Positions 1,473 through 31,529 of a DNA stretch of 39,411 bases are shown here, in pieces. This DNA comes from Leucoraja ocellata (lineage: Eukaryota). The notes under the pieces were generated by a model. The model ran no database searches, was not told the origin of the DNA, and saw nothing but the letters and a program-made list of their open reading frames with translations. The translations under genes were made by a program, and so were the position numbers. The stretch lies in contig JAWMAR010004817.1 of assembly GCA_036785375.1 (NCBI GenBank), positions 1 to 39,411 on the forward strand, given 5' to 3'. Position 1 is the stretch's first letter. Each line of letters opens with the position of its first letter.

Positions 1473-1817
1473 ACATAAGCGCGGCTGTTACAGTAACTCA
1501 GCCGCCTTCGATGTCCACCTCTACGGGACAGAACATACAAATACCCTGCACCATATCGGGTGCCAGTTCGGGCGCTAACTATGTCTCGTGGTACCAACAG
1601 ATTCCTGGCAAAACTCCCAAGTATCTATTCTACCATTATACCGGCGGCAGCATTTATAAAGGCACGGACATTCCAGACCGTTTTTCCATCTCGGTGTCAG
1701 GCAGCTCTGTAACATTCGCAATATCTAACGTTCAATCGGTGGATGCTGCTGACTATTACTGTGCCAAAGGGGATAGTGGTTTACATTTCGGTAAAGGAAC
1801 GAGGCTGGGTATTGGCG
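1473..1817 (+). CDS. IgL: IgL copy 1 germline-joined VJ exon
   Basis: Polypyrimidine tract plus AG at 1471-1472. V-set hallmarks TQPPS, first Cys, WYQQ, PDRFS and DYYC run directly into the J motif FGKGTRL. Donor GTAAGT at 1818. Confidence 0.96.
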
Positions 1818-2811
1818 GTAAGTAAAATATATTCTTCGAACAGCGCGCTGTTTTCATTTTGTTTTAATGCAGATATTGCTTGATTTAATGTCCTGAGTTC
1901 ACCTGATACTTGATTGGGCCAGTTGTATTTCAGTGCAGATGGTGCGATCTTGCTATACAGATGTTCCGAGTTCACTTGGACGTAACTCAGTGAAATGACT
2001 GGGAAAGCGAGCTAATGCTTTGTCTTGAGCTTCGTTCAATAACTTGCGGAAATATTTGCAGTGATTGTCCAGATATGAAAGGAAATTGCTTGAGTAACGG
2101 GTTCATCAACGTTAATATTCAGCACTGTCAAAAATCCGGTTGACGGGTTGAACAAGGATATCAAAATGCCAAATGCGAAAGGAGAAAGTTTCGCACATTT
2201 CCTTCAGAAATTGTGTTTAATACGTAGAGCAGCTTTTCGTGGACGCAGCCGTGTATTTCAAATTTAAATGAACATTCGAACTACAATGTAATTCTTGCTT
2301 GTGAACTATATCTGCGAATCGGTGACCGTGGCCTTCGAAGACTAGTTTCCATATATTTTTGCCGAACTTAAATAGCGTCGCCCTCCATCTCAATGGGGCC
2401 AACAATTAAATAAGTTTAAATCTGTTATTATAAATGTCGCGACCGCGAATCGTTTATATCTGCTGATATATTTAAATAAATGTAAATCCGGAAATGTGTA
2501 GTAAAATGAATATTATAAAAGTTATAATGATGTATTCAGTTTTATAAAATACTGCAGCCATGATCTATCACAGATGGGTTTCCCGGTGTTTATACAGAGG
2601 GTAGACAGGATCTATTTTAGTTGCTTTCACGCACTTTATTTATTGTTCACCCAATTACAATAAACACACTATAATGGTTTGAAAAAGGTCGAGAATAAAA
2701 CGACATTTCTATAAATGAATAAATGAGTGCTTTAATGAGATGTATTTTCGGTAAATAATGATATCTCAACGACAGCATTTCTCCAATTAAATGTGACTTC
2801 TTATTAAACAG

Positions 2812-3133
2812 ATCCTCGGGCACCGATCGTGACGGTCCTGCCGCCTTCAGCCGATGAAGTTACCTCAAAGGGCATCGCCACCCTGGTGTGTTTGGTGAAC
2901 GGCTTTAATCCGGGCTCGGTCGCCGTGAGTGGACAGTCGACGGCAGTGCAAGAAATAGCGACGTTGAGACCAGCCCGATCCAGCAGGATAAGGACAACAC
3001 GTTCAGTCTCAGCAGTTACCTGACTCTGACAGCCTCAGACTGGAACTTACACGACCTTTACTCCTGTGTGGTTAAACACCAGGCTCAGGCAAACCCACTT
3101 AAGACAACTATCGAGAGATCCAGCTGTATCTGA
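2812..3133 (+). pseudogene. IgL: IgL copy 1 constant exon (type II/lambda-like) with a 1-bp frameshift
   Basis: Acceptor AG at 2810-2811. Reads GCCGTGAGT at 2922-2930 where copies 2 and 3 have GCCGTTGAGT, giving a premature TGA at 3021-3023. The ancestral stop is at 3131-3133. Could be an assembly indel. Confidence 0.8.
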
Positions 3134-3396
3134 TGTTGGAAACGTGAGGCTGACCTGACTAAGTTAGTTTATCATCATTGGGTTCGTCCATGTGACAAAG
3201 TTAGTAATGTACTGGACTTCGGTGTTTTCGTTCATAAATGCCATTTGTAGTTGAAACTTCGATTTTTATGACGTTCACTTTAAATGTAGTTCTTTCGAAA
3301 GAATGTCGTTCTTGAATGAAGCATCAAGTAGATTCAATTGCGTTATCCAACAGCATGGATGTTGTTATTGTACCCATGGTATCTTTGTAGCCGTTC

Positions 3397-3402
3397 AATA
3401 AA
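3397..3402 (+). terminator. Polyadenylation signal, IgL copy 1
   Basis: AATAAA about 265 bp after the stop, followed by GT/T-rich sequence. Conserved in all copies. Confidence 0.7.
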
Positions 3403-4524
3403 GTTTAAAAAACGCATTTCAAATGCATTGTTGATTCCCTTTGGTTTATTTCTGACCCGAACCATGATGGCTTAACACGGGTTGCGTTGTCTCGTAGATG
3501 TGAGCTAGCAACACTGATTTTGATTCTCTATTTCGATCACTAATTGCAATCGTACAACAGTCGTGAGCCACTCGTCCATTTATACCACGCGTTCTACAGC
3601 GCTTTGTCAGTCCGTGAATCAGAAAAAGAACCATATAAACCAAGCAGGGCAAACGTGTTCTTAACCCCAAATTATCACAGAAATAAACATAAAAGACTGT
3701 TCATACTCAGTAAGTCGGGCGGTATGTGGGAAGTGAGAAATAGATTAGACGTTTCAGGCTGTTTAAAAAAATAAATAAAACAAACGTCCCTACCAGCCTC
3801 GTGCGTTCAGGGTTTGTTAAATATGTCTTTGTTCATAATGTGCCCGGTTACATAATTAAATAAAATACGTGTGCATACGTGGAAATCAGGAAATTTGGAA
3901 ACGACATTAATTCCCAACACATCAGCAGGTTTCTGTAAACTGATGGGTTGTTCGCACCTCCCCTTTACACCCCTCGCACTAAGCATGGCACCTCCATCCT
4001 TCATCACAGAAGGCCGTGACTTTCACACTAATCGGTGACGGGGTTTGTATTTAAATATTTACAAATATTACACCTTATTTCTTCTTTATTTCTTCTGATT
4101 GTCAGCTTTAAAAGAAACAGGGTGATTATTGGCGTTAGCAGAACAAGTCACTGAGTTTGTATGTGGCGTGTCCGTGTCTCACGGTGGTATTACACGGGAA
4201 CTGGGTAACAACACTCTCAATAAAGCAAGATAATATCTACAGAAAGATGCGATGAGTGCACGGCAGCTTCATATATACAGGAGCAGAAAGAGAGCGAGGG
4301 GTGGGAGAGAGAGAGAAGAGAGAGGGGGGGGGGGAGAGGGGTGAGAATAGGACGGGGGCGGGGTTAATAGCGAACAATGAGGGAACTATATGCTATAGTT
4401 AGAGGACATTCAGTCACGGACAAACCCCTGACCTCTGTCACAAATCGCTTTTCACTTATTGCAAGCTTTATTCCCAATTATTTTCACGTTACATGAGCAA
4501 CCTGGGCTTAAGTCTTAATGAATG

Positions 4525-4736
4525 GGAAGGAGCTGCAGATGCTGGTTTAAAGCAAAGATAGACACAAACATCTGGAGTAAATCAGCGGGTCAGAAAGCAT
4601 TTCTGGAGAAAAGGAATCGGTGAAGTTTTGGGGCGAGACCCTTCTTCAGACTGTTTGAAGAAAGGTCTCGATCCGAAATGTCACCTACGCATTTTCTGCT
4701 GAGATGCTGTCTGACCCGCTAATTTACTCCAGCTTT
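4525..4736. mobile_element. Palindromic Penelope-like terminal repeat with decayed hammerhead cores (also 34573-34783; mostly deleted in unit 2)
   Basis: About 80-bp imperfect inverted arms centred near 4652, with (C/T)TGAAGA-stem-GAAA motifs at the centre. Family assignment is inferred from the motif. Confidence 0.6.
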
Positions 4737-5125
4737 ATAGAAACATAGAAACGTAGAAAATAGGTGCAGGAGTAGGCCATTCGGCCCTTCGAACCTGCAC
4801 CGCTATTCAATATGATCATGGCTGATCATCCAACACAGTATCCTGCACCAGCCTTCTCTCCGTACCCTCTGATCCCTTTAGCCACAAGGGCCACATCTAA
4901 CTCCCTCTTACATATAGCCAATGAACTGGCCTCAACTACCTTCTGTGGCAAAGAATTTCAGAGATTCCAGAGATGTGTGAAAACATGTTTTCCTCATCTC
5001 GGTCCCAAAAGATTTCCCCCCCTTTCCTTAAACTGTGACCCCCTGTCCTGGACCTTCCCAACGTCGAGAATAATCTTCCTGCATCTAGCCTGTCCAACCC
5101 CCTAAGAACTTTGTAAGTTTCAGCC
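4737..5125 (-). mobile_element. CR1 LINE 3' fragment (also 19158-19482 and 34784-35172)
   Basis: (CATAGAAA)n tail on the + strand, GGCCATTCGGCC stem-loop, and minus-strand ETYKVLRGLDRLDAGRLF. Confidence 0.85.
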
Positions 5126-5555
5126 ATGATCTCATTATGTGTCTTATCTTTTCTAAATGATCCGGATTGTATGCATTTTTGGCTGATTCGAATAAATGGT
5201 CACATATCTGCAATTGCTCACCTGCTGGTTAGTTATTTTGGAAATTCCTCTAAATCTGTAAATACTGAGCCTACTTTCACTCGGAAAAAATGGTCAATTA
5301 AAACGCCTTGACTATGCCCCTCATTCAAATCACCATTATACCCTCCCTGTTCAAAGGAACCAATTCCGGTTATTCTCAGGCTGCCATTATCATGCCCATT
5401 TTCTTCCCAATTTCTTCTGCGGCTTGTAATGAAGGAGCCGAAAACAAAGATTTCCTTGCCTTTTCCTTCCGTTCCCGTAGTGTCCTGGTTATCCATTGTG
5501 AGCTCCACCTTTCCCTGGTCATCGATATCGGTTTTCATTTGTTCTGAATCTTTTC

Positions 5556-5762
5556 ATAGAGACATAGAAACATAGAAAATAGGTGCAGAAGGAGGCCATT
5601 CGGCCCTTCGAGCCAGCACCGCTATTCAATGAGATCATGGCTGATCGTCCCCAATCAATAACCCGTGCCTGCCTTCTGCCCATATCCCTTGATTCCACTA
5701 GCCTCTAGAGCTCTAACTCTCTCTTAAATCCATCCAGTGATTTGGCCTGCACTGCCCTCTGT
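5556..5762 (-). mobile_element. CR1 LINE 3' end (also ~19923-20132 and ~35609-35789)
   Basis: Same 8-bp tail and stem-loop as the 4737 element. Confidence 0.85.
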
Positions 5763-6380
5763 GACAGGTACTGACCCAAAATGCCGCATTTTCTCCTGTC
5801 TCGTAATGTAATTACAACATTTTACCATTGCCTTTCGAAGATGTCTATGTGTGAGCGCCAGGACCGGCGAGAAAATCATGCACTTACACTCATGCCATGT
5901 ATAAATGCTGTCGGCCTCTCTCGCTCATCATCCGCGTGAATGCTGTTAAACACGATGTCAGTGTCATAACTTCAGATCTATCCACGATGGCCCACAATGT
6001 CTGTGCGAACCTAATGCCAATGTCATCTGCCATCCATATATAATGTCTATATCCCTCCATTACCTATCTGTTCACGTGTTTGCCTAAATGTCTCTTGAAC
6101 CTTGCTGGGTATCTACTTACACCGCTTCGTCTAGCAAAGCGTTGCACACTTTCTGTTTAAAAAAGACATGCAAAGTGTGGCCCCTTCAAACGTCCCCTCG
6201 CCTACTTTAATAAACTATATTATATAATACTTCGGCCCTGGACTCCTAAGTAAAGCGACTTATCTTCACTAAGGGTAATAGATAGGGATAGGATATCGAT
6301 GCAGTGTCTGGCCAACAACACATTAATCCCCAAAATAAATCAATGGATAGGGATTCAATAAAACGACAGTGTTAGTTAAC

Positions 6381-6584
6381 GTGTAGGAAGGAACTGCAGA
6401 TGCTGGTTTAAATCGAAGATCGATACAAAATGCTCGAGTAACGCAGCGGGACAGGAAACGTCTCTAGATGGAAGGAATGGGTGACGTTTCGGGTCTGAAT
6501 CAGGGTCTCGACCGGAAAGGTCACAAATTCCTTCTGTCCAGAGATGTTGCCTGTCGCGCTGAGTCACTCCAGCATGTTGTATCT
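6381..6584. mobile_element. Second palindromic Penelope-like terminal repeat (also ~20750-20953; absent from unit 3)
   Basis: Same GAAGGAACTGCAGATGCTGG family, inverted arms, centre CTGAA(T/G)CAGGGTCTCGACCGGAAA. Confidence 0.6.
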
Positions 6585-6639
6585 AATGTTGGTTAAGGTC
6601 TGTTTCGTTTTAGAGAGCTCGGAAAAATGCTGAAAATGC

Positions 6640-6890
6640 TGAAACCTCCAGGGTGGTTATCTTCGGTTTGCTTCCAATTCCTCGTGCTGGCGAGAGCAGG
6701 AACAGGGAGATACGGGACCTGAATGTATGGCTGAGGAACTGGTGCAGGGGCAGGGATTTTGATTCTTAGACCACTGAGATGTGTTTTGGAGTAAGGGGGA
6801 TCTGTACAAAAGGGACGGATTGCACTTTAACAGACGGGGGACCAGCATTCTGCAGGCAGGGTTTCCACTGCTACACAGGTGGTTTTAAAT
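6640..6890 (+). mobile_element. CR1 ORF1 esterase (SGNH-like) fragment, disrupted (also ~21018-21270)
   Basis: Translates as TSRVVIFGLLPIPRAGESRNREIRDLNVWLRNWCRGQGF...DLYKRDGLHFNRRGTSIL, with in-frame stops. Confidence 0.75.
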
Positions 6891-6894
6891 TAAA

Positions 6895-7156
6895 CTAGAC
6901 CAAGTGCAGACCCGTTTGGGGGGAGGGGGGGGGGGGGGGATTTTCTTTAAAATTTGTACATAAACGACGAAATTTAATCAGGAGTGGATACTTGGAATGA
7001 AAAATGAAATCTCTACCGAAATGGAAACATTCTGGGCGTTTGTGGGTCTGGTGTTGGCGTAGCAACGAATCAAAGGCTGGCACCCACAAGCTGGGAACCA
7101 CAAGTCAAGCAGAAACACAGCCAGCCAGCAACCAGCCACAGAGTTTTAATATTATA
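6895..7156 (-). mobile_element. Short, internally deleted non-autonomous Helitron (also 21273-21530; variant at 36454-36791)
   Basis: CTAG 3' terminus at 6895 followed on the minus strand by T. Shares terminal sequences with the adjacent long copy, head-to-tail. Confidence 0.7.
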
Positions 7157-8787
7157 CTAGACCAAGTGCAGACCCGTTGGGTCTGTTTCCCCATCGCGCG
7201 TTTGCGGGGGAAGAGGGGGGGGGGGGGGGGGCTGGGGCATCACACTCACACTAACCGCCCCCCAAACACACAGATGGGGGGGAGGGGGAGAGGGGGAGAC
7301 GGGGTGGGGAGAGGGGGTGGGTGAGAACAGGGGAGGGAGGAGAGAGGGGGAGGAGGAAACGGGAGAGATTTGGGAGAGGGAGAGCAGAGCGGGGTATGGG
7401 GAGAGAGAGGGGGATGGGAAGGGGGAGGATAGTGGGGAGTGGGAGGAGAGCGGGGAGGTCAGGAAGCGGGGGGGTAGGGGGTGGGAGAGGGGTAGCGGGG
7501 ATTGGTGCAAGAGAGAGGTGAAGGGGGGAGATGGGGGCGAAGAGAATGGGAGGGGGGAGATGGGGGCGAAGAGAAGTGAGGAGGGGGTAGGAGGGGAGGA
7601 GGGAGAGGGTGAGGACAGAGGGCGGAAGGGGAGGAGGAGAGTGGGGTGGGGGAGGGGATGAGAGAGGGGTGGGGGAGGGGGAGAGAAGGGTGGGGGAAGG
7701 GGAGAGACGGAGGAGGAGGGAGGAGGGGGAGGAGGGAGGGGAAGGAGGAGGGAGAGGGGGAAGAGTGTGGAGGGAGCGGGAGAGTGGAAGGGGCGGGGGA
7801 ATGGGGGGGAGAGGGGTAGGAGAGAGAGAGGGCGAATAGTGGTGAGGGAGGGGGAGGATAAAAGTGCGGAAGAGGGGCAGAGGGGTAGGGGGAGTGGTGG
7901 AAGAGGCAGAGGTGGGTAGGGGGGAGAAGTGGGGGGAGAGAGGGGTGGGGGTTGGCGTTGGAGGGGTGGAGGGAGAGGGGTGAGGAGAGAGGGGGAAAGG
8001 GAGGAGGAGAGGGGTGTGGGAGGGGTGAGAGATGGTGGGGGGGGAGGGGGAAGATGGTGGGGAGGCGGAGAGAGGAGAGAGTGAGGAGAGGATGGAGGGG
8101 AGGGGGAGGGAGGAGGGAGAGGTGGAAGAGTGTGGAGGGAGGGGGAGAGGGGTAGGGGGTGGGGGGGGAGTGTGGAGGGAGGGGGAGAACGGAGAGAGGG
8201 GGAAGAGTGGATGGGAGAGAGAAGGGAGGGGGAGAGAGATGGGTGGGGGAGGGAGATGGGGAGGAGTGGGGGATGGGGGGTGGGGGTGAGATAAGTGTAA
8301 GGCTGGGGAGGGAGGGCAGGAGGGAGATGGGGTAGGGGAGGGAGGGCGAAGAGTATGGAATGAGGGGGAGAGGGGTGGGGGATAGAGGGGAAATAGTGGG
8401 GAGGGAGAGTGGAAGGGGGAGGGGTAGGGAAGTCCATCTGTTCCCCATTCCCTATCACCCCCAATCCTCTTTCTCTATTCCCACACACGCGATGACGCGC
8501 TTCGACACAGGCTGCGGGGGTGGGGGGAGGGGCTGGTGCTGGGGCTGCGGCAAAGGCATATGTAAATTGATCCATTCCGATTGGACATCCGTGAACATTG
8601 GGCATTGTGACATCACACGATGGAACGTTCAACAACATTCGATGGGTGAGAGCTGTTTTTTTTAAATTTGGTGGGTTGGGGGGAGAAGGATTTTATTAAA
8701 AATGTGTACATAAACACGACGAAATTTATGGAGTGGATACTTGGAATGAAAAGTGAAATCTCTACCGAAATGGAAAAAATCTGGGCG
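7157..8787 (-). mobile_element. Non-autonomous Helitron with a purine-rich internal tract, 5' end deleted (also 21531-23139)
   Basis: The minus strand ends CAGACCC-AAC-GGGTCTG-cacttggt-CTAG|T, a subterminal hairpin plus CTAG, which is the canonical Helitron 3' end. Confidence 0.75.
7205..8430 (+). repeat. G/A-rich low-complexity tract (also ~21580-22790 and ~36840-37180)
   Basis: About 1.2 kb of almost pure purine G-runs. Source of the spurious Pro-rich and Gly-rich ORFs. Confidence 0.95.
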
Positions 8788-9849
8788 CACTGGTGATCAT
8801 TTTCCAATGTTCAATAGATTGAGGATCGGTTCCTGTGGATTGGAGGATAGCTAATGTTTTCCCAGTTTTCAAGAAAGGAGTGAGAGAGAAAACGGGGAAT
8901 TACAGGCCAGTTAGCCTGACTTCGGTGGTGGGAAAGATGCTGGAGTCAATTATTAAATATGTAATAATGGGGCATTTGGATAGCAGTAAAAGGATTAGTC
9001 CAAGTCAACATGGATTTATGAAAGGGAAGTCATGCTTGACTAATCTTCTGGAATTTTTTGAGGATATGACAAGTAAAATCGATCAAGAGGAGCCAGTGGA
9101 TTTAGTATATCTAGACATCCAGAAAGCCGTTGTTAATGACACAAAGCTGGGTGGCAGTGCGAACTGTGAAGAGGATGTTAGGTGGTTGCAGGGTGACCTG
9201 GACAGGTTGAGTGAGTGGGCAGATGCGTGGCAGATTTCAGTATAGGAGTAAAGAGGTACTTCTGCAGTTGTATAGGGCTCTGGTAAGACCACATCTGGAG
9301 TATTGCGTACAGTTTTGGTCTCCTAATCTGAGGAAGGACATCCTTGTGATAGAAGCAATGCAGCGTAGGTTCACGAGATTGATCCCTGGGATGGCGGGAC
9401 TGTCCTATGACGAAATATTGAAAAGACTAGACTTGTATTCGCTGGAGTTTAGAAGGATGAGGGGGTATCTTATGGAAACATATAAAATTATAAAAAGGAC
9501 TGCACAAGCCAGATGCAGGACAAATGTTCCCAATGCTGGGCGAGTCCAGAACCAGGGGCCACAGTCTTGGAGGCCATTTAAGACTGAGGTGAGAAAAAAC
9601 GTTTTCACCCAGAGAGTTGTGAATTTGTGGAATTCCCTGCTACAGAGGGCAGTGGAGGCCAAATCACTGGATGGGTTTAAGAGAGAGTTGGAGCTCTAGA
9701 GGCTAGTGGAGTCAAGGGATATGGGGAGAAGGCAGGCACGTGTTATTGATTGGGGACGATCAGTTAAGATCGCAATGAATGGCGGTGCTGGCTCGAAGGG
9801 CCGAATGGCCTCCTTCTGCACCTATTTTCTATGTTTCTATGTTTCTATG
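8788..9849 (+). mobile_element. CR1 ORF2 (RT) remnant with internal deletions and 3' tail (also 23140-24927)
   Basis: NYRPVSLTSVVGKMLE, QHGFMKGKSCLTNLLEFF, LYRALVRPHLEYC, and a (TTTCTATG)n tail at about 9825-9848. Confidence 0.92.
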
Positions 9850-10099
9850 AAAAGATTCAGACCAAATGAGACCCGAAATCGACGATCAGGGATAGGTGGA
9901 GCTCACAATGAACAACCAGAACACTGAGGGAAGGGGAGAAAAAGGCAATGCCGGGAAGACTCAAATGTCTGCTGTTGGCTCCGTCAGAAAAATTACAAGC
10001 CGCAGAAGAAATTGGGCATGATCATGGCAGCTCGAAAGTAATCGGAATTGGTTCCTTTGAACAGGGAAGGTATAATGGCGATTTGAATGAGGGACATAG

Positions 10100-10615
10100 T
10101 CCGCTCACCCAACCTATATCCAAGTCACCCTACAGCCCCATACCACCTTCCTCATACCTCACACTGTCACCCAGCTTTGTGTCATCCGCAAACTTGGAAA
10201 TGTTACTTTTAATTCCCTAATCAAGATCGTTAATATACATTGTAAATAACTGGGGATCCAGCACTGAGCCTTGCGACACCCCACTAGTCACTACCTGCCA
10301 TTCTGAAAAGGATCCATTAATTCCTTCTCTTTGCTTCCTGCCAGACAACCAGTTCCTTATCCATGTAAATACCCTACTCCCAATACCATGTGCTCTAATT
10401 TTGCACACTAATCTCTTGTGTGGGACCTTGTCAAATGATTTTTGAAAGTCCAGATACAACACACCATCTGGCTCTCCCTTTTCCATTCGACTTGATAGAT
10501 CCTCAAAAGTTTCCGGAAGATTAGTCAAGCATGATTTCCCCTTCATAAATCAACACTGACGTTGTCCGATCCCTTCATTGCTTTCCAAATACGCTGCAAT
10601 TACATCTTTAATAAT
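10100..10615 (-). mobile_element. CR1 RT fragment (also ~25190-25700)
   Basis: YLDFQKSFDKVPH and SGVSQGSVL on the minus strand. Confidence 0.9.
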
Positions 10616-10654
10616 TTAATAATATTAAATTCCGGACTGACAGATTATTGATTG

Positions 10655-10800
10655 GTTATGGGTGACAGGGGGTACGGAAATAAGACATTAGAATGGGGTA
10701 GAGAGGTTAAGTTGGATCAGCCATTATTGAATGGTGGAGCAATCTTGATGGGCCGAATGGCCTAATTCTGCTCCTAGAACAATGAATTTATGAACATGAA
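10655..10800 (+). mobile_element. Short CR1-type 3' end (also ~25740-25870)
   Basis: GATCAGCCAT..TTGAATGG..GGGCCGAATGGCCT motif. Confidence 0.65.
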
Positions 10801-11636
10801 TTATGCGTCTGGTTCTTGAATGCCTTGGAGACCATTTTGTTGAGGCTATACAATATGATTAGAATGGATTATGTTGACGGCACAGACTGTGGGCTTGTTG
10901 CACTTGTGGCAAAGAGAGACAAAGGATGGGATTATGTCATTAAAATAAAAACTTAATCCTGTACAATGTCGGACTTCTTGAAGGTTTTCGGAGCTGAGGT
11001 CATCACGAGATGTGGCGAGGAAGTGATCACAGCCATTTTGCTATTTTTGATGCATTATCAGAGTCTTGAGAATTTGGTATTGAGTGGGGAACTGGAATGA
11101 GATGGAATGGAGATAGATTATTTTGGTTCCAACACGATCTTTATTATAGAAAATACGAGAAAATACTCATATAGCAGGAAATCGCACTCCTTTCTGCTCG
11201 TTAAGCCTGAATAATAAGAAGTCACATGAATTTCTCCTCTTCCAGATTCCCGTTTGCTATAGCTGGCCTGGAGAACTCGAAAGTCCTTGCACATTTCTGG
11301 GTCTAATGTGCAATCTTTCTCTGTGTCTCTTGAAGATGATTTCCGTGAGCTGGATCGAAACATTCATTTATACAATGAATAAATCTGATCTCGAAACAAA
11401 AGTAAATTCAGTTTTAAAACTAGTTGTTCTTCTTTGTACTCAAGTAACAGTAAGCTAGTTATTAAAGCAAGGGCCGAGCTAATCTCGGATGTCTCTCAGA
11501 ATGAAATTAAGATATCCCAATAGACATCTGGAAGTGCAGCGGGGTCAACACTGTTTTGTTCGTACACCTTGACCTCTTTCTTGACTGTTCAACTTTAAAC
11601 AATCCTTCGTCAATGCACTCTGCTCAATCTTTGACA

Positions 11637-12750
11637 TGGCATTGACATGGGTAGGGGATTGGTTTGGAAACAGGAAACAAAGAGTAGGAATAAACGGGTC
11701 CCTGCCAGAATGGCCGGCAGAGGCGAGTGGAGTGCCGCAAGGCTCAGTGTTGGGGCCGCAACTATTTACAATATATATATTAATGATTTAGATGATGAGA
11801 TTAAAAGTAACACTAGCAAATTTGCAGATGACACAAAGTTGGGTGGCATTGTGAACGGCGAAGAGGATGCTAGGAGGTTGCAGGGTGACTTGGACAGGTT
11901 GAGTAAGTGGGCAGATGCAAGGCAGATGCGGTATAATGTAAACAATTGTGAGTTTATCCATTTTAGTGGCAAGAACAAGGAGGCAAATTTCAATCGAATC
12001 TCAATGGTGTCAGATTAGGAAAAATGGAAGTGCAGCGAGACCTGAGTGTCCATGTACACCAGTCAATTAAAGAAAACATGCAGATACAGCAGGCAGTGAA
12101 GAAAGCTAATGAGGCGTTGGCTTTCATAACGAGAGGTTTTGAGTAGAGGATTAAAGAGATCCTTCTGCAGTTGTACAAGGCCCTGGTGAGACCACATCTC
12201 GTGCATTGTGTGCAGTTTCGGTCTCCTAATTTGAGGAAGGACATCCTTGCTATTGAGGCAGTGCAGCGTAGGTTTAAGAGGTTAATCCCTGGGATGGCGG
12301 GAATCTCATATGAGGAAAGATTGGAAAAATAGGGCTTGTATTCACTGGTATTTAGAAGGATGAGGGGGCATCTTATAGAAACGTATACAATTATAAAAGA
12401 ACTGACAAGCTAGTCGCAGGAAAAATGTTCCTAATGATGGGGGAGCCCAGAACCAGAGGCCACAATCTAAGAATAAAGTGGACGCCATTTAAAATTGAGA
12501 GGAGAAACATTTTTCACCCAGACAGTTGTGTATTTGTGGAATACTCTGCCACAGAAGGCCATAAAAGCCAATTCACTGGACGAATTTAAAAGTTAGATAG
12601 AGCTCTCGGGGCTAGCGGAATCAATGGTTATGGGGAGAACGCAGGCACGGGTTACTGATTGTGGATGATCAGCCATGATCACAATGAATAGCGGTGCAGG
12701 CTTAAAGGGCCAAATGGCCTCCTTCTGCACCTATTTTCTATGTTTCTATC
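11637..12750 (+). mobile_element. CR1 ORF2 3' portion with tail (also ~26740-27846)
   Basis: GVPQGSVLGP, YINDLD and KFADDTK RT motifs, many frameshifts, TTTCTATG tail. Confidence 0.9.
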
Positions 12751-12894
12751 TAACTTGGACACATCTAATTCATCAACGTTATTCATTTGTATGATGATTG
12801 AGTCTTTGGAAACGCAGTATTTATTGCCTATCCAAAAGTGGGAACACAGAGACACAAGGAACTGCGGATGATAAAACACGAAGTGCTGGAGTAA

Positions 12895-13570
12895 CACGGG
12901 GTGTGCCTCAGGGTTCGGTGCTGGGCCCGTTAATGATTGTCATCTATATCAATGATTTGAATGGGATCATACTTAGTAAGATTAGCAAGTTTGCAGATGA
13001 TACAAACGTGGAAGGTTTTGCAGATAGTAGAGATGGTTGTGAAAAAAGTGCAGCAGGGTCTGGATCAATTGGCCAGGTAGGCTGAGGAATGGTTGATGGA
13101 ATTTAATGCAGAGAAATGTGAAGTGTTGCATTTTGGGAATTCTAACATAGGCAGGACCTGCGCAGTCGACGGTAGATCGGGTGGTCAAAAAAGCTTTTGG
13201 CACATTGGCCTTCATCAGCCCGTGTAATGAGTATAGAGGTTGGGAGGTCTTGTTGCAGATGTATAAGACGTTGGTGACGCCGCATTTAGAGTATTGAATT
13301 CAGTCTGGGCAACCGTATAGGAAAGATTTCGACAAGCTGGAAATGGTACAGAGAAGATTTACGAGGATGTTGCCATGACTAGATGGTGTGAGGTATAGGG
13401 AGGGGTTGAGTAGGCCTGGACTCTATTCGTTGGAGCGCAGAAGTTGAAGGGAAACCTCATAGAGGTGTATAGGGTCGTGAGAGGAATAGATCGGGTGGAT
13501 GTATAGTCCCTTGCCCAGAGGAGGACCGGGTTCATGGTGACGGGCAAAGAATTAATAGGAATCTGAGGGG
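12895..13570 (+). mobile_element. CR1 RT fragment of a different subfamily (also ~28004-28678)
   Basis: GVPQGSVLGPL, YINDL and SKFADDT, with a decayed C-terminal domain. Confidence 0.85.
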
Positions 13571-13571
13571 T

Positions 13572-15722: not shown

Positions 15723-15808
15723 TTTCTGATTGGCTTCGACGAGCATACCGGTTTGATTGGTTTGGATAATTAAACACACGGTGACATATCGTCATTCCAT
15801 TTATAAAG
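15723..15808 (+). promoter_or_regulatory. IgL copy 2 promoter (CCAAT x2, CRE-like, TATA)
   Basis: Identical to the copy 1 promoter. Confidence 0.7.
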
Positions 15809-15877
15809 AGAGCCAGAGAGCAAGATTACACGCCACTTGTCCTGGAAACTGCCGCCCCATCGGAGCTCAGTCGGTTA

Positions 15878-17715: not shown

Positions 17716-17979
17716 TGTTGGAAACGTGAGGCTGACCTGACTAAGTTAGTTTATCATCATTGGGTTCGTTCATGTGACAAAGTTAGTAATGTATTGGACT
17801 CAGTGTTTTCGTTCAGAAATGCCATTTGTAGTTGAAACTTCGATTTTTATGACTTGTTCACTTTAAATGTAGTTCTTTCGAAAGAATGTCGTTCTTGAAT
17901 GAAGCATCAAGTAGATTCAATTGCGTTATCCAACAGCATGGATGTTGTTATTGTACCCATGGTATCTTTGTAGCCGTTG

Positions 17980-17985
17980 AATAAA
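17980..17985 (+). terminator. Polyadenylation signal, IgL copy 2
   Basis: AATAAA at the homologous position. Confidence 0.7.
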
Positions 17986-20900: not shown

Positions 20901-23462
20901 TTCTGTCCAGAGATGTTGCCTGTCCCGCTGAGTCACTCCAGCATGTTGTATCTAATGTTGGTTAAGGTCTGTTTCGTTTTAGAGAGCTCGGAAAAATGCT
21001 GAAAATGCTGAAAATGCTGAAACCTCCAGGGTGGTTATCTACGGTTTGCTTCCAGTTCCTCATGCTGGCGAGAGCAGGAACAGGGAGATACGGGACCTGA
21101 ATGTATGGTTGAGGAACTGGTGCAGGGGCAGGGATTTAGATTCTTAGACCACTGAGATGTGTTTTGGAGTAAGGGGGAACTGTACAAAAGGGACGGATTG
21201 CACTTTAACAGACGGGGGACCAGCATTCTGCAGGCAGGTTTGCCACTGCTACACAGGTGGTTTTAAATTAAACTAGACCAAGTGCAGACCCGTTTGGGGG
21301 GGGGGGGGGGGATTTTCTTTAAAATTTGTACATAAACACGACGAAATTTAATCAGGAGTGGATACTTGGAATGAAAAATGAAATCTCTACCGAAATGGAA
21401 ACATTCTGGGCGTTTGTGGGTCTGGTGTTGGCGTAGCAACGAATCAAAGGCTGGCACCCACAAGCTGGGAACCACAAGTCAGGCAGAAACACAGCCAGCC
21501 AGCAGCCAGCCACAGAGTTTTAATATTATACTAGACCAAGTGCAGACCCGTTGGGTTTGTTTCCCCACCGCGCGTTTGCGGGGGAAGAGGGGGGGGGGGG
21601 GGGCTGGGGCATCACACTCACACTAACCACCCCCCAAACACACAGGTGGGGGGGAGGGGGAGAGGGGGAGACGGGGTGGGGAGAGGGGGTGGGTGAGAAC
21701 AGGGGAGGGAGGAGAGAGGGGGAGGAGGAATCGGGAGAGATTTGGGAGAGGGAGAGCAGAGCGGGGTATGGGGAGAGAGAGGGGGATGGGAAGGGGGAGG
21801 AGAGTGGGGAGTGGGAGGAGAGCGGGGAGGTCAGGAAGCGGGGGGTAGGGGGTGGGAGAGGGGTAGCGGGGATTGGTGCAAGACAGCGGTGAAGGGGAGG
21901 GGGGAGATGGGGGCGAAGAGAGGTGAGGAGGGGGTATGAGGGGAGGAAGGAGAGGGTGAGGAGAGAGGGGGGAAGGGGAGGAGGAGAGTGGGGTGGGGGA
22001 GGGGATGAGAGAGGGGTGGGGGAGGGGGAGAGAAGGGTGGGGGAAGGGGAGAGAGGGAGGAGGAGGGAGGAGGGGGAGGAGGGAGGGGAAGGAGGAGGGA
22101 GAGGGGGAAGAGTGTAGAGGGAGGGGGAGAGTGGTAGGGGGCGGGGGAATGGGAGGGGGAGAGGGATAGGAGGGAGAGAGGGGTAATAGTGGTGAGGGAG
22201 GGGGAGGATAAGAGTGCGGAAGAGGGGCAGAGGGGTAGGGGGAGTGGTGGAAGAGGCAGATGTGGGTAGGGGGGAGAGGTGGGGGGAGAGAGGGGTGGGG
22301 GTTGGCGTTGGAGGGGTGGAGGGAGAGGGGTGAGGAGAGAGGGAGAGGGCAGAGAGGGGGAAAGGGAGGAGGAGAGGGGTGTGGGAGGGGTGAGAGATGG
22401 TGGGGGGGAGAGGGGAAGATGGTGGGGAGGCGGAGAGAGGAGAGAGGGAGGAGAGGATGGAGGGGAGGGGGAGGGAGGAGGGAGAGGTGGAAGAGTGTGG
22501 AGGGAGGGGGAGAGGGGTAGGGTGTGGGGGGGTGTGGAGGGAGGGGGAGAACGGAGAGAGGGGGAAGAGTGGATGGGAGACGGGAGGCGGAGAGAGATGG
22601 GTGGGGGAGGGAGATGGGGAGGAGTGGGGGATGGGGGGTGGGGGTGAGATAAGTGTAAGACTGGGGAGGGAGGGCAGGAGGGAGATGGGGTAGGGGAGGG
22701 AGGGCGAAGAGTGTGGAGTGAGGGGGAGAGGGGTGGGGGGAGAGAGGGGAAATAGTGGGGAGGGAGAGTGGAAGGGGGAGGGGTAGGGAAGTCCATCTGT
22801 TCCCCATTCCCTATCTCCCCCAATCCTCTTTCTCTATTCCCACACACGTGATGACGCGCTTCCACACAGGCTGCGGGGGTGGGGGGAGGGGCTGGGGCTG
22901 CTGCAAAGGCATATGTAAATTGATCCATTCCGATTGGACATCCGTGAACATTGGGCATTGTGACATCACACGATGGAACGTTCAACAACATTCGATGGGT
23001 GAGAGCTGTTTTTTTTTATTTGGTGGGTTGGGGGAAGAAGGATTTTATTAAAAATGTGTACATAAACACGATGAAATTTATGTAGTGGATACCTGGAATG
23101 AAAAGTGAATTCTCTACCGAAATGGAAAAAATCTGGGTGCACTGGTGATCATTTTCCAATGTTCAATAGATTGAGGATCGGTTCCTGTGGATTGGAGGAT
23201 AGCTAATGTTTTCCCACTTTTCAAGAAAGGAGTGAGAGAGAAAACGGGGAATTACAAACCAGTTAGCCTGACTTCGGTGGTGGGAAAGATGCTGGTGTCA
23301 ATTATTAAATGTGTAATAATGGGGCATTTGGATAGCAGTAAAAGGATTAGTCCAAGACAACATGGATTTATGAAAGGGAAATCATGCTTGACTAATCTTC
23401 TCGATTTTTTTGAGGATATGACAAGTAAAATGGATGAAGGGGATCCAGTGGATTTAGTATAT

Positions 23463-24247
23463 AGTATTTAGTATAGGACGTACATGATAAATGGTAGGGA
23501 ATTGAAGAATACAGTTGAACAGAGGGATCTGGGTATAACCGTGCATAGTTCCTTGAAGGTGGAATCTCATATAGATAGGGTGGTAAAGAAAGCTTTTGGT
23601 ATGCTAGCCTTTATAAATCAGAGCATTGAGTATAGAAGCTGGGATGTAATGTTAAAATTGTACAAGGCATTGGTGAGACCAAATCTGGAGTATGGTGTAC
23701 AATTTTGGTCGCCCAATTATAGGAAGGATGTCAACAAAATAGAGAGAGTACAGAGGAGATTTACTAGAATGATGCCTGGGTTTCAACAACTAAGTTACAG
23801 AGATAGGTTGAATAAGTTAGTTCTTTATTCTCTGGAGCGCAGAAGGTTAAGGGGGGACCTGATAGAGGTCTTTAAAATGATGAGAGGGATACACAGAGTT
23901 GATGTGGACAAGCTTTTTCCTTTGAGAATAGGGAAGATTCAAACAAGAGGACATGACTTCAGAATTAAGGGACAGAAGTTTAGGGGTAATATGAGGGGGA
24001 ACTTCTTTACGCAGAGAGTGGTAGCGGTGTGGAATGAGCTCCCAGTGGAAGTGGTGGAGGCAGGTTCATTGGTATCATTTAAAAATAAATTGGATAGGCA
24101 TATGGATGAGAAGGGAATGGAGGGTTATGGTATGAGTGTAGGCAGGTGGGACTAAGGGGAAAAAAATTTGTTCGGCACGGACTTGTAGGGCCGAGAAGGC
24201 CTGTTTCCGTGCTGTGATTGCTATATGTTATATGTTATATGTTATAT
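23463..24247 (+). mobile_element. Young 5'-truncated CR1 insertion nested in an older CR1, unit 2 only
   Basis: Uninterrupted 223-aa ORF2 C-terminus (23484-24155) and a (GTTATAT)n tail. The empty site GATTTAGTATATCTAGAC is present in unit 1 near 9099-9116. Confidence 0.92.
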
Positions 24248-27200
24248 CTAGACATTCAGAAAGCCTCTGATAATGAAACAAAGCTGGGTGGCAGTGTGAA
24301 CTGTGAAGAGGATGTTAGGTGGTTGCAGGGTGACCTGGACAGGTTGAGTGAGTGGGCAGATGCGTGGCAGATGCAGTATAATATGGATAAATGTGAGGTT
24401 ATCCACTTCGGTGGCAACAACAAGGGAGAAGATTATTATCTCAATGGGGTTAGGTTAGGTAAGGGGGAGGTGCAGCGAGACCTGGGCGTCTTTGTACAGC
24501 AGTCGCTGAAAGTTGGCGTGCAGGTACAGCAGGCAGTGAAGAAAGCTAATGTTGGCCTTCATAACAAGAGGCTTTCAGTATAGGAGTAAAGAGGTTCTTC
24601 TGCAGTTGTATAGGGCTCTGGAAAGACCACATCTGGAGTATTGCGTGCAGTTTAAGACTGAGGTGAGAAAAAACGTTTTCACCCAGAGAGTTGTGAATTT
24701 GTGGAATTCCCTGCCACAGAGGGCAGTGGAGGCCAAATCACTGGATGGATTTATGAGAGAGTTAGATAGAGCTCTAGAGGCTAGTGGAATCAAGGGATAT
24801 GGGGAGAAGGCAGGCACGTGTTATTGAATGGGGACGATCAGCTAAGATCGCAATGAATGGCGGTGCTGGCTCGAAGGGCCGAATGGCCTCCTTCTGCACC
24901 TATTATCTATGTTTCTATGTTTCTATGAAAAGATTCAGAACAAATGAGACCCAAAATCGACGATCGGGGAAAGGTGGAGCTCACAATGAACAACCAGGAC
25001 ACTAGGGAATCGGGAGAAAAAGGCAAAGCCGGGAAGACTCAAATGTCTGCTGTTGGCTCCGTCAGAAAAATTACAAGCCGCAGAAGAAATTGGGAAGAAA
25101 TTGGGCATGATCATGGCAGCTCAAGAGTAACGGAATTGGTTCCTTTGAACAGGGAAGGTATAATGGCGATCTGAATGAGGGACATAGTCCGCTCACCCAA
25201 CCTATATCCACCCTACAACCCCATACCACCTTCCTCACACCTCACACTGTCACCCAGCTTTGTGTCATCCGCAAACTTGGAAATGTTACTTTTAATTCCC
25301 TAATCTAGATCGTTAATATACATTGTAAATAACTGGAGATCCAGCACTGAGCCTTGCGACACCCCACTAGTCACTGCCTGCCATTCTGAAAAGGATCCAT
25401 TAATTCCTTCTCTTTGCTTCCTGCCTGCCAACCAGTTGCTTATCCATGTAAATACCCTACTGCCAATACCATGTGCTCTAATTTTGCACACTAATCTCTT
25501 GTGTGGGACCTTGTCAAATGATTTTTGAAAGTCCAGATACAACACATCAACTGGCTCTCCCTTTTCCATTCGACTTGTTACATCCTCAAATGTTTCCAGA
25601 AGATTAGTCAAGCATGATTTCCCCTTCATAAATCCACGCTGACGTTGTCCGATCCCTTCATTGCTTTCCAAATACGCTGCTATTACATCTTTAATAATTT
25701 AATAATTTTAAATTCGAGATTGACAGATTCTTTATTGGTTATGAGTGACAGGGGGTACGGAAATAAGACATGAGAATGGGGTAGAGTGGGATCAGCCATT
25801 ATTGAATGGTGGAGCAACCTTGATGGGCCGAATGGCCTAATTCTGCTCCTAGAACAATGAATTTATGAACATTAATTATGCGTCTGGTTCTTGAATGCCT
25901 TGGAGACAATTTTGTTGAGGTTATGCATAATTGGACATTATAATGCATTATGTTGACGGCACAGACTGTGGGCTTGTTGCACTTGTGGCAAAGAGAGACA
26001 AAGGATGGGATTATGTCATTAAAATAAAAACTTAATCCTGTAAAATGTCGGACTTCTTGAAGGTTGTCGGAGCTGAGGTCATCACGACGTGTGGGGAGGA
26101 TGTGATCACAGTCATATTGCTATTTTTGATGCATTATCAGAGTCTTGGGAATTTGGCATTGAGTGGGGAACTGGAATGAGATGGAATGGAGATAGATTAT
26201 TGTGGTTCCAACACGATCTTTATCATAGAAAATACGAGAAAATATTCATAAAGCAGGAAATCTCACTCCCTTCTGCCCATTAAGCCTGAACTGATAGAGA
26301 CGGCGGTTAATAATAAGAAGTCACATGAATTTCTCCTCTTCCAGATTCCTGTTTGCTATAGCTGGTCTGGAGAACTCGAAAGTCCTTGCACATTTCTGGG
26401 TCATGATCTAATGTGCAGTCTTTCTCTGTGTCTCATGAAGATGAGTTCCGTGAGGTGGATCGAAACATTCATTTATACAATGAATAAATCTGATCTCGAA
26501 ACAAAAGTAAACTCAGTTTTAAAACTAGTTGTTCTTCTTTGTACTCAATTAACAGTAAGCCAGTTATTAAAGCAAGGGCCGAGATAGTCTCGGATGTCTC
26601 TCAGAATGAAATTAAGATATCCCAATAGACATCTGGAAGTGCAGCGGGGTCAACGCTGTTTTGTTCGTACACCTTGACCACTTTCTTGACCAACTTTAAA
26701 CAATCCTTCGTCAATGCACTCTGCTCAATCTTTGACATGGCATTGACATGGATAGATGATTGGTTTGGAAACAGGAAACAAAGAGTAGGAATAAACGGGT
26801 CCCTGCCAGAATGGCCGGCAGAGGCGAGTGGAGTGCCGCAAGGCTCAGTGTTGGGGCCGCAACTATTTACAATATATATATATTAATGATTTAGATGATG
26901 AGATTAAAAGTAACACTAGCAAATTTGCAGATGACACAAAGTTGGGTGGCATTGTGAACGGCGAAGAGGATGCTAGGAGGTTGCAGGGTGATTTGGGCAG
27001 GTTGAGTGAGTGGGCAGATGCATGGCAGATGCAGTATAATGTAGACAATTGTGAGTTTATCCATTTTGGTGGCAAGAACAAGGAGGCAAATTTCAATCGA
27101 ATCTCAATGGTGTCAGATTAGGAAAAATGGAAGTGCAGCGAGACCTGAGTGTCCATGTACACCAGTCAATTAAATAAAACATGCAGATACAGCAGGCAGT

Positions 27201-29331
27201 GAAGAAAGCTAATGAGGCGTTGGCCTTCATAACGAGAGGTTTTGAGTAGAGGAGTAAAGAGATCCTTCTGCAGTTGTACAAGGCCCTGGTGAGACCACAT
27301 CTCGAGTATTGTGTGCAGTTTCGGTCTCCTAATTTGAGGAAGGACATCCTTGCTATTGAGGCAGGGCAGCGTAGGTTTAAGAGGTTAATCCCTGGGATGG
27401 CAGGAATCTCATATGAGGAAAGATTGGAAAAATTGGGCTTCTATTCACTGGTATTTAGAAGGATGAGGGGGATTCTTATAGAAACGTATACAATTATAAC
27501 AGAACTGACAAGCTAGTCGCAGGAAAAATGTTCCTAATGATGGGGGAGCCCAGAACCAGAGGCCACAATCCAAGAATAAAGTGGAGGCCATTTAAAATTG
27601 AGAGGAGAAAACATTTTCACCCAGACAGTTGTGTATTTGTGGAATACTCTGCCACAGAAGGCCGTAAAGGCCAATTCACTGGACGAATTTAAAAGTTAGA
27701 TAGAGCTCTCGGGGCTAGCGGAATCAATGGTTATGGGGAAAACGCAGGCACGGGTTACCGATTGTGGATGATCAGCCATGATCACAATGAATAGGGCTTA
27801 AAGGGCCAAATGGCCTCCTCCTGCACCTATTTTCTATGTTTCTATCTAACTTGGACACATCTAATTCATCAACGTTATTCATTTGTATGATGATTGAGTC
27901 TTTGGAAACGCAGTATTTATTGCCCATCCAAAAGTGGGAACACAGAGACACAAGGAACTGCGGATGCTGGAATCATGATAAAACACGAAGTGCTGGAGTA
28001 ACACGGGGTGTGCCTCAGGGTTCGGTGCTGGGCCCGTTAATGATTGTCATCTATATCAATGATTTGAATGGGATCATACTTGGTAAGATTAGCAAGTTTG
28101 CAGATGATACACACGTGGGAGGTTTTGCAGATAGTAGAGATGGTTGTGAAAAAAGGGCAGCAGGAACTGGATCAATTGGCCAGGTAGGCTGAGGAATGGT
28201 TGATGGAATTTAATGCAGAGAAATGTGAAGTATTGCATTTTGGGAATTCTAACATAGGCAGGACCCACGCAGTCGACGGTAGATCGGGTGGTTAAGAAGG
28301 CTTTTGGCACATTTGCCTTCATCAGCCAGAGTAATGAGTATAGAGGTTGGGAGGTCTTGTTGCAGATGTATAAGACGTTGGTGACGCCGCATTTAGAGTA
28401 TTGAATTCAATCTGGGCACCCGTATAGGAAAGATTTCAACAAGCTGGAAATGGTACAGAGAAGATTTACGAGGATGTTGCCATGACTAGATGGTGTGAGG
28501 TATAGGGAGGGGTTGAGTAGGCCTGGACTCTATTCTTTGGAGCGCAGAAGTTGAAGGGAAACCTCATAGAGGTGTATAGGGTAGTGAGAGGAATAGATCG
28601 GGTGGATGTATAGTCCCTTGCCCAGAGGAGGACCGGGTTCATGGTGACGGGCAAAGATTTAATAGGAATCTGAGGGGTTCCTATTCAATGTGTGCAAGAC
28701 ACGCTTTGATACAATTCAAGGTGGTTCACAGAGCTCATATGTCAAAAGATAAGTTAACTCGTTTTTATGGTCATATGAATCCTACCTGTGACAGACGTAA
28801 ATCTGAAGTGGCCTCACTGACCCATATGTTTTGGTCTTGCCCTTCTTTGGAAAAATATTGGAAATAATTTTTTGTTACTATTTCTGTAGTCTTAGGCATA
28901 GGTTTACAAACTGGAATTACTGCAATTTTGGGGCTGCCAATGTTAGATTCTAATCATATGTCCCGCTCCGCCCATCGGTTGATTGCTTTTACCACATTAA
29001 TCGCCAGAAGATCTATTTTATTCAAATGGAAAGACTCCTAACCCTCCGACCACACTCCAGTGGTATTCGGAAACGATATCATGTTTACATTTTGAAAAAA
29101 TCAGCAGTGACACTGTTGAACCCTTGGTTAAATTTGATAAGACTTGGGTAAAATGTATTGAACATTTTCATACAACATACATTGCTCCCTCTTTAACCGT
29201 TATACAAAATATTTTATCTCTATTGGGTGGAACAGACATGACGACAAACAGACTTACATTGTTGAAATTCTCAGTTCAGATTCGGGTTTGCTTTGCTTTG
29301 TTTTTTTTAAACTATTTTATTTTTATGCGTA

Positions 29332-29367
<36 letters not shown>

Positions 29368-30853
29368 CAATTTTTCTCTTTTTTTTCTTTCTTTAGTTTA
29401 GTCTTTTTTTTGTCTATTTCTTTTTGTGCTTTTTTTTACATTTATAAGTTTCCTTTTAAAGATTTAACTATATTAACATAGAGACCTGGAGGTCTAGATT
29501 CATTGTGTATTTTGACATTGGTCTCATATCAGGTTATATCTGTTATTAATGTAATCCTGATCCCTATGTATCAATACCATTGTTATATTTATCATTATTC
29601 TTTTTGTTCCGTTTTTTATGTTTTATTTTTGCTTTTTTTGGAAAAAAAAACAATAAAAAGATTTGTTTTTAAATAGAAAGGAATATGAGGGGTATCTTTT
29701 TCCCACAGAGGGTGGTGGGAGTATGGCACAAGCAGCCAGAGGAGATAGTTGTGCCAGGGACTATCCCAACGTTTAAAAACCAGTTAGACAGGTAAATGGA
29801 TGTGACAGATTTAGAGGGATATGGACCCAATACGGGCAGGTGGGACGAGTGTAGATGGGTCGGTGGTCGATGTGTGAAAGTTGGGCCGAAGGGCCTGTTT
29901 CCACACTCTATGACTGACTCTCTTTGACTCTATGGGGCATCATGTAGCATCTGCGGATCGGCATTTGCGGTGGTAATAATGAACAGCCACGAGCCAATGC
30001 AATCTTTCGCGTGTTCACGTTGCAAAGTTTCTCCCTTGTCAGCTTTGCCCGTGCCCGTGCTGGAGTGCCCGTGTTCCATTCAACTTTAATTGAATATGGA
30101 TGTGCTGTATATAGAATTCCTGTCTTCCTTCAAAGCCGAAAGAACTCTGGAAGTAGGCGGTGAGAGCCAATATGACCCCTTTTACTTCACTCATATGTGC
30201 ATTGATTTGGTACAGGCAACCTTTACACGTTGAGTCGTGAATTACTGCGCATTACAACAGGATAGAATCACAGACCACTTTTACAAGCACGACACACGTC
30301 GGGTAGTCAAAATAGCCCCCCAAAACGGCAACTTTACTGACATTTGTAATGATGTTCTGTCCCCTCAGGTCTTTTCTAAATGATCTGATACACAAGTAGA
30401 AGGGCAGCCTGTGGGTTTTATCATTTCTAAAATGACAAAGATATCTAAATATACATTTAATGTGCTTTTTAATAAAACAATGCTGATGCTGTGACTGTGA
30501 TCATGTTATGTTCATCGATACGGAGGTAGACAAAAATGCTGGAGAAACTCAGCGGGTGAGGGCGCGAAGGAAATCAGCGATACGGATTCAGTTGGTCCGT
30601 TTAGATAGCATATTTCTATTCCGTTTTCATTGTTGATTAAACAGTTACCCAATATAATATTACAACTCGCAATCTGTTTAGTGTATATCTGCGGGGGGGT
30701 TCATACAGAACATTATAGATTGTTTGTTTATAAAGAAGGGACAACTGTGACAATCCTTTACATTCTGCTGGATGTATGAAGCTTTTTAGAAATACAAGTC
30801 TCTAAAATAAGACCTGCGTGTAAGGGCGAATATTTTGAGGAAGAATCTGGCAA

Positions 30854-30939
30854 TTTCTGATTGGCTTCGACGAGCATACCGGTTTGATTGGTTTGGATAA
30901 TTAAACACACGGTGACATATCGTCATTCCATTTATAAAG
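30854..30939 (+). promoter_or_regulatory. IgL copy 3 promoter (CCAAT x2, CRE-like, TATA)
   Basis: Identical to the copy 1 promoter. Confidence 0.7.
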
Positions 30940-31008
30940 AGAGCCAGAGAGCAAGATTACACGCCACTTGTCCTGGAAACTGCCGCCCCATCGGAGCTCA
31001 GTCGGTTA

Positions 31009-31063
31009 ATGAACATGTCTTATTGGATCCGTGTGGTCGGTGCGTTGGTGTTTTGCGCAGTTT
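31009..31063 (+). CDS. IgL: IgL copy 3 leader exon
   Basis: ATG at 31009, donor GTGAGT at 31064. Confidence 0.9.
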
Positions 31064-31184
31064 GTGAGTATTTTACTTTCCTGGACATTATACTTATTTC
31101 TGTTCACCATTAATTTGGGGTTACCTCCCACACTTCAACAAACCTAATATTTTCTCTTTTGTTCTGATATTTCTCCTTTCTCAG

Positions 31185-31529
31185 ACATAAGCGCGGCTGT
31201 TACAGTAACTCAGCCGCCTTCGATGTCCACCTCTACGGGACAGAAAATACAAATACCCTGCACCATATCGGGTTCCAGTTCAGGCGCTTACTCTGTCTCG
31301 TGGTACCAACAGATTCCTGGCAAAACTCCCAAGTATCTATTCTACTATTCTAGCAGCGGCAGCATTTCTAAAGGCACGGACATTCCAGACCGTTTTTCCA
31401 TCTCGGGGTCAGGCAACTCTGTAACATTCGCAATATCTAGCGTTCAATCGGTGGATGCTGCTGACTATTACTGTGCCAAATGGGATAGTGGTTTATATTT
31501 CGGTAAAGGAACGAGGCTGGGTATTGGCG
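31185..31529 (+). CDS. IgL: IgL copy 3 germline-joined VJ exon
   Basis: AG at 31183-31184, intact V plus J (CDR3 AKWDSGLY), donor GTAAGT at 31530. Confidence 0.96.

Follow-up and report, generated by a model that had tools for sequence, protein, structure and literature searches.

Three Tandem Germline-Joined Light Chain Clusters

The window analyzed here, the whole 39,411-nt contig JAWMAR010004817.1 of the Leucoraja ocellata assembly GCA_036785375.1, contains three tandem leader-VJ-C clusters of a germline-joined immunoglobulin (Ig) light chain, each with a leader exon, a fused variable-joining (VJ) exon and a constant (C) exon. The clusters lie on the forward strand in three copies of a tandem duplication unit (1..39411; ~14.6-15.1 kb each, ~92-96% identical), the third of which ends at the contig end, and their spacers are rich in long interspersed nuclear element (LINE) fragments and G-rich simple repeats. 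The three copies differ far more in their antigen-binding loops, the complementarity-determining regions (CDRs), than in neighboring DNA, most likely through natural selection.

In copy 1 the leader exon (1300..1354, with an ATG at 1300 or 1306 and a phase-1 GT donor) precedes the VJ exon V1 (1473..1817) and the C exon (2812..3133). The corresponding exons lie at 15878..15932, 16054..16398 (V2) and 17393..17715 in copy 2, and at 31009..31063, 31185..31529 (V3) and 32861..33183 in copy 3. All three VJ exons are 345 nt long and match the Pfam V-set domain. V and J share one open exon in each cluster, a motif scan of the three window clusters found nothing resembling a recombination signal sequence (RSS), and DNA contigs from other runs continue across the V-J join without a joint. 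The arrangement is that of a cartilaginous-fish minicluster, with a split leader, a V-set VJ exon carrying FGXG, one C1-set exon and a near-terminal Cys. The C exons of copies 2 and 3 are intact, that of copy 2 encoding a lambda-type C1-set domain. The C exon of copy 1 is frameshifted by a 1-base deletion near 2925, and the missing base is present in contigs of all four other runs; the lesion reflects either a pseudogene or an assembly error. Only the J-C intron of copy 3 carries a ~340-bp high-copy insertion with a TAA run (~32123-32470).

Divergence Among the Three Copies

CDR boundaries were placed with conserved Cys, Trp and Phe residues as distance markers, giving CDR1 at codons 29-36, CDR2 at 54-61 and CDR3 at 97-104. 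By exact count over 345 nt, V1 and V3 differ at 15 positions, of which one is synonymous, and 10 of the 14 replacements fall in CDRs. V2 and V3 differ at 15 positions over 11 codons, with the residue altered in all 11, and V1 and V2 at 21 positions, two of them synonymous. The initial annotation had counted these differences by eye, and its numbers and all nine of its CDR strings were reproduced exactly. Its description of the changes as almost only CDR replacements is overstated: of the 21 codons that vary, 8 are not in the CDRs, and of the 11 codons changed between V2 and V3 only 5 are.

The annotation had also proposed comparing CDR divergence with that of neutral spacer. Against ~5 kb of non-coding DNA, the CDRs proved more diverged in every pair (11-19% vs 2.7-3.8%), with 14/72, 11/72 and 8/72 CDR differences vs 2.7, 3.8 and 3.8% in non-coding DNA (Fisher p 1e-8, 1e-4 and 0.007, respectively).

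The Gene Family and Its Class

A search of the assembly gave 38 matches to the family, spread over four contigs; 23 are ≥88% identical (the close copies) and 15 are 69-74% identical. Two of these contigs, C384 and C531, carry matching copy sets whose closest pair is 1.2% apart in the flanks; they may be haplotypes, so the copies may include alleles. Some copies are damaged: single-base indels break the V exons of L015 and L016, which are pseudogenes or assembly errors, the C exon of L009 is truncated, and the V of L028 contains a stop.

The best protein matches to the window genes come from Leucoraja (88%), Rhinoraja and Amblyraja, where they are modeled as "lambda-1 light chain-like", and among the best 120 matches those with curated names are sandbar shark lambda chains (51-52% over the whole chain). 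In a V tree, the window V genes fall in the lambda clade, apart from comparison genes that we take to be "type-I-like" and "sigma-like" (support 95/91). These matches and the V tree make lambda (type II) the most likely class of the window light chain; the C tree was poorly resolved and held one out-of-frame row. The window CDR2 is ~4 residues longer than the short CDR2 of sandbar shark lambda. Since the accessible text of PMC5985310 gives lambda CDR2 a length of 3-7 residues, the long CDR2 is compatible with lambda and marks a subfamily. The long-CDR2 V is old, with relatives present in rays, sharks and one chimaera cDNA. Identity with the type I family of Anderson et al. (1995) was considered and rejected, given 38% (V) and 44% (C) identity to the type-I-like genes L043/L065 and the placement in the V tree; a GenBank search with a mixed alignment found no named type I V-only entries.

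On the same contigs as the long-CDR2 family lie 18 short-CDR2 V genes, one of which matches the little-skate cDNA AAA59379 and is 68% identical to sandbar shark lambda. On C531 the short- and long-CDR2 blocks adjoin each other with mostly the same orientation, whereas on C384 ~430 kb separates them and their orientations are mostly opposite; the difference is either an inversion polymorphism or a misassembly. Elsewhere in the assembly, L068-L084 (G000:C76, C5) are VJ-like exons, joined and present in multiple copies, whose very short CDR3 closes with a non-canonical G-x-G motif; as far as checked, they fall outside the four light-chain classes. L092-L102 are eleven heavy-chain V copies that are partly or fully germline-joined, and in some of them a short D-like stretch is followed by an RSS-like motif.

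Selection Tests on 19 Copies

For tests of selection, 19 of the 23 close copies were used; L012 and L015 were dropped as near-duplicates of L011, and L022/L023 as a divergent pair. The mean proportions of nonsynonymous and synonymous differences (pN/pS) were 0.164/0.075 in the CDRs, 0.242/0.036 in CDR2 and 0.025/0.040 in the framework. Likelihood ratio test (LRT) statistics were 74.8 for M1a/M2a, with an M2a omega (dN/dS) of 7.3 at 13% of codons, and 74.6 for M8a/M8, while M7/M8, which the initial annotation had suggested for an enlarged copy set, gave 75.1. Posterior probabilities exceeded 0.9 at codons 1, 30, 35, 36, 53, 55, 56, 59, 61, 99 and 104; nine of these eleven sites are in CDRs, codon 53 adjoins CDR2 and one is in the leader. 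With multi-nucleotide changes allowed the LRT was 47.6. An a priori partition that gave the CDRs their own rate returned an omega of 2.6-3.5, and of 7-9 for CDR2.

The copies recombine: upstream DNA, V exon and intron each reject the others' trees, and incompatibility between near sites is below that of shuffled sites (p 0.015); CDR variants occur among the copies in mosaic combinations. Most null runs that allowed recombination or conversion but lacked positive selection were nominally significant, so nominal p-values mean little here. The observed LRT of 74.8 is, however, three times the maximum of these runs (24.5, n = 23). The strictest calibrated test used neutral simulations with recombination, some of them also with the CDR mutation rate raised threefold; 8 of 265 reached the partition LRT seen in the real copies (p ~0.03). 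Positive selection on the CDRs is thus supported with 19 copies, although the three window copies alone are non-significant.

As a control, the C exon gave an LRT of 10.1, within the recombination null, and positive selection on the C exon was dropped as a candidate. Codons 41, 81, 88, 90 and 101 of the C exon (copies 2 and 3) are multi-allelic across copies. The LRT was 24.0 for 14 distant long-CDR2 copies, at the edge of the null range, and 47.7 for 12 short-CDR2 lambda copies. For heavy-chain V genes, 19 RSS-bearing copies (of 30 fetched, 11 joined or partly joined being excluded) gave 53.2, with all five of the best sites in CDRs. Diversifying selection on the CDRs is thus likely, with moderate statistical strength and a center at codons 53-61.

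Comparison With Amblyraja

The CDRs and the rest of the gene behave differently between genera. We compared the Leucoraja copies with seven predicted Amblyraja proteins of the same cluster. The framework and C sort by species (differentiation 0.32, permutation p<0.0002), with a same-species nearest neighbor in 26 of 26 rows. In contrast, the CDRs do not (differentiation 0.03, p 0.18), and only one of the seven Amblyraja rows has its nearest CDR neighbor in its own species, where ~1.7 would be expected by chance. The difference in differentiation, framework and C minus CDR, was 0.14-0.42 by site bootstrap. At least two residues are shared across genera at 13 of 25 CDR positions (codon 53 included) vs 8 of 192 elsewhere, and motifs recurring in both genera include V2's GAKL, WYYSGTIY, YYESG and GAND, along with both CDR2 lengths. 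Because the same motifs recur in Amblyraja, the odd residues of V2 are unlikely to be errors. The pattern suggests either that old CDR variants were retained by selection against homogenizing gene conversion or that they arose by repeated convergence; both would require selection.

Promoter and Expression

The initial annotation had noted ~180 bp of promoter and 5' untranslated region (UTR) without differences. This was borne out by a block of 194 bp that is identical in all three copies, at 1115..1308 on the forward strand in copy 1. At the non-coding rate, the chance of zero differences in 191 bp is 0.0006-0.005 per pair. The block holds minus-strand CCAAT boxes at 1151 and 1178 and TATAAA at 1224, from whose positions transcription of copy 1 is predicted to start at about 1252.

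Ig light-chain promoters normally require an octamer. No consensus octamer occurs in the invariant block 1115-1308. Within ~400 bp 5' of the leader, the exact octamer (ATTTGCAT) is present in none of the 37 long-CDR2 copies (L001-L037) and in all 18 short-CDR2 lambda copies (L047-L064); the close long-CDR2 copies have two CCAAT boxes and a TATA box in its place.

In both sets of contigs that appear to be RNA-derived (their RNA status is a guess, no listed run being recorded as RNA), the leader is spliced to VJ (31063>31185 in copy 3) and VJ to C, at GT-AG; the VJ-C splice is that of the copy 3 C exon. These contigs start at 30961 in copy 3, with loose letters at their ends before this position. 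They differ from V3 at 14-21 positions and therefore indicate expression at the level of the family rather than of the three window copies.

Probable Diversifying Selection and Competing Explanations

The explanation we favor, at a probability of roughly 0.75, is that diversifying selection keeps these germline-joined lambda copies distinct in their CDRs, above all CDR2, while duplication, probably together with gene conversion, homogenizes the rest. A single ancient V-J joining event would have been amplified, with the copies subsequently shuffled and homogenized by unequal crossing-over and conversion. Selection for a varied light-chain paratope would then favor new CDR replacements and keep old CDR variants across species splits. 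Going by the literature, a B cell would pick one of some tens of ready-made clusters, with somatic hypermutation likely to follow.

Several observations weigh against selection of this kind. Among the three window copies, pN exceeded pS significantly in none of nine comparisons (Fisher p 0.08-0.54), a dN/dS result that was set aside as underpowered. In the larger set, CDR1 and CDR3 are non-significant when taken alone, and the framework omega of 0.6-0.8 is not significantly below 1. When the distinct variants of the 19 copies (~22 silent and ~63 replacement) are each counted once, the nonsynonymous-to-synonymous (N/S) density ratio of the CDRs is 1.37 (p 0.32). Silent divergence in the CDRs is about twice that of the frameworks. 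A second codon rate class reduced the LRT to 12.4, a value exceeded by three of six null runs (null maximum 28.5, with short optimization), which makes this test uninformative. The codon models, run in purpose-written code, used F3x4 frequencies and naive empirical Bayes; the 19 copies possibly mix alleles and paralogues, and at least three copies of the assembly carry single-base indels. The cross-species set is confined to a single other genus, and the residues shared with it may come from convergence. The "strong positive selection" of the initial annotation is accordingly supported as selection on the CDRs, whereas its strength is tempered by recombination and by the rate-variation test, which lies within its null.

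The alternative that survives best is that no positive selection has acted, and that the pattern arose in unconstrained CDRs through recombination combined with either a local rise in mutation rate or a locally deeper genealogy. We consider this unlikely. It would account for the raised CDR pS (0.075 vs 0.040, and up to 0.2-0.4 in other families), for the outcomes of the distinct-variant and rate-variation tests, and for the nominal significance of site tests, which arises by recombination alone. It does not fit CDR2, where pS (0.036) is not above that of introns and pN is 0.242, and of 194 neutral simulations in which the CDR rate was tripled, 5 reach the partition LRT. A deeper genealogy limited to the CDRs would itself require selection, and four gene families concur.

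The initial annotation further held that germline diversity is built in place of junctional diversity. Such replacement could work by repeated RAG joining in germ cells or by selection on CDR3 that rebuilds its repertoire. Germline joining has been ascribed to RAG acting in germ cells in the accessible portion of Lee et al. (2000, PMC2193156). As an account of the present array, such replacement is improbable. There are 11 distinct CDR3 sequences among the 23 close copies, codons 99 and 104 score as selected, and in the linked short-CDR2 family CDR3 varies strongly and is 9 or 11 residues long. However, CDR3 is 8 residues long in all 23 close and all 14 distant copies (37 of 37 long-CDR2 copies; L038, a partial match, was left out) and in each of 17 proteins from other skates, and this single length points to one old joining event that was then amplified. 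Nine of the 23 close copies share an identical CDR3, and the CDR3 omega is non-significant; the signal is centered on CDR2. Moreover, the rearranging, RSS-bearing heavy-chain V genes show equal selection in CDR1 and CDR2, so germline CDR selection appears general to V genes here and no compensation for joining, and this part of the annotation was not upheld. In the short-CDR2 lambda genes L047-L058 (G000:C531 864k-936k, C384 151k-220k), germline CDR3 diversity (pN 0.25, pS 0.22) may reflect repeated joining or later divergence and is the complement of the window family.

AID-type hypermutation in germ cells could in principle have written the CDR differences into the germline, though we judge this very improbable. 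Doublets account for several CDR changes (codons 36, 53 and 99), and framework C/G positions are variable more often inside WRC/GYW motifs (10 of 38) than outside them (9 of 89, p 0.022). Yet untranscribed upstream DNA shows the same enrichment (p 0.035), whereas the 5' J-C intron does not (p 0.44). Introns vary about as densely (0.14-0.26) as upstream DNA (0.19), and the short-CDR2 family has no hot-spot enrichment. The CDR changes are mainly transversions, no enrichment survives correction for nine regions, and comparison of upstream, framework and introns did not find a raised, hot-spot-biased variation confined to a transcribed 5' window. Sequencing or assembly errors, although single-base indels do occur in the C exon of V1's cluster and in L015 and L016, are a negligible source of the copy differences, as errors would not spare the 194-bp promoter while clustering in CDRs, and identical states are seen again in further copies, in contigs of other samples, where paralogues are collapsed, and in Amblyraja proteins, V2's CDR1 Lys-Leu included.

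Comparison With Known Systems

The basic pattern, replacements concentrated in the CDRs of joined skate light chains, was already reported in 1995 for type I genes of the little skate, where differences are CDR-biased, replacements outnumber neutral changes, every gene is joined and there is no junctional diversity, as far as the accessible text goes (Anderson et al., 1995, PMC2192082). The window family resembles this type I (sigma-2/sigma-cart) system in that all clusters are joined, copies are many, replacements are CDR-biased and the family appears to be expressed. Unlike type I, it has a lambda-type C and V and forms one tandem array. The window C is only ~44-48% identical to the type-I-like genes, of which three joined examples were found in the assembly (L065-L067; G000:C94, C230) vs at least 89 in the available part of PMC2192082; collapse, a species difference or an overcount are candidate reasons for this gap.

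A closer counterpart is the type II/lambda/NS3 class, whose genes are all germline-joined in cartilaginous fish according to the accessible parts of PMC4279169 and PMC5192425. Within the same limits of these sources and of PMC5985310, the window genes share with this class the V-J-C minicluster, germline joining and a V in the lambda clade, and the C in linked clusters is 62-67% identical to sandbar shark lambda. Unlike sandbar shark lambda and the cDNA AAA59379, which have a short-CDR2 V, the window V belongs to a long-CDR2, fixed-CDR3 subfamily, and unlike the short-CDR2 lambda copies the window family is without a promoter octamer.

Germline V paralogues with dN above dS in CDRs and not in frameworks were reportedly described by Tanaka and Nei in 1989. 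The window case differs in that CDR3 and J lie inside the germline exon and whole V-J-C clusters are duplicated.

Skates appear to depend largely on pre-joined light chains, which makes this germline array a natural experiment in repertoire evolution without V-J rearrangement. The complete array permits a formal test, in which selection appears aimed at CDR2 and not at rebuilding the junction. That frameworks and C sort by species while CDR motifs do not may be new; our literature search, whose coverage excluded most subscription papers and the full text of the 1995 report, turned up no study of selection in skate lambda genes or of CDRs shared between species there. If this holds at the DNA level, selection would be resisting concerted evolution in antibody genes, pointing to long-lived antigens bound by them. 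As a tentative extension, a pool of CDR1/CDR2 cassettes resembling the major histocompatibility complex (MHC) might predate the split of the skate genera, kept by balancing-type selection and shuffled by conversion, with frameworks, C exons and flanks made uniform inside each species. The short-CDR2 lambda genes would then be complementary through CDR3, the two joined families dividing the paratope under different promoters, one octamer-less and one octamer-bearing. The window case, unlike the MHC, concerns paralogous antibody genes and a protein comparison with one other genus; like the MHC, as described in the accessible parts of PMC1403747 and PMC9992475, it has binding-site variants that seem older than the flanking parts of the gene.

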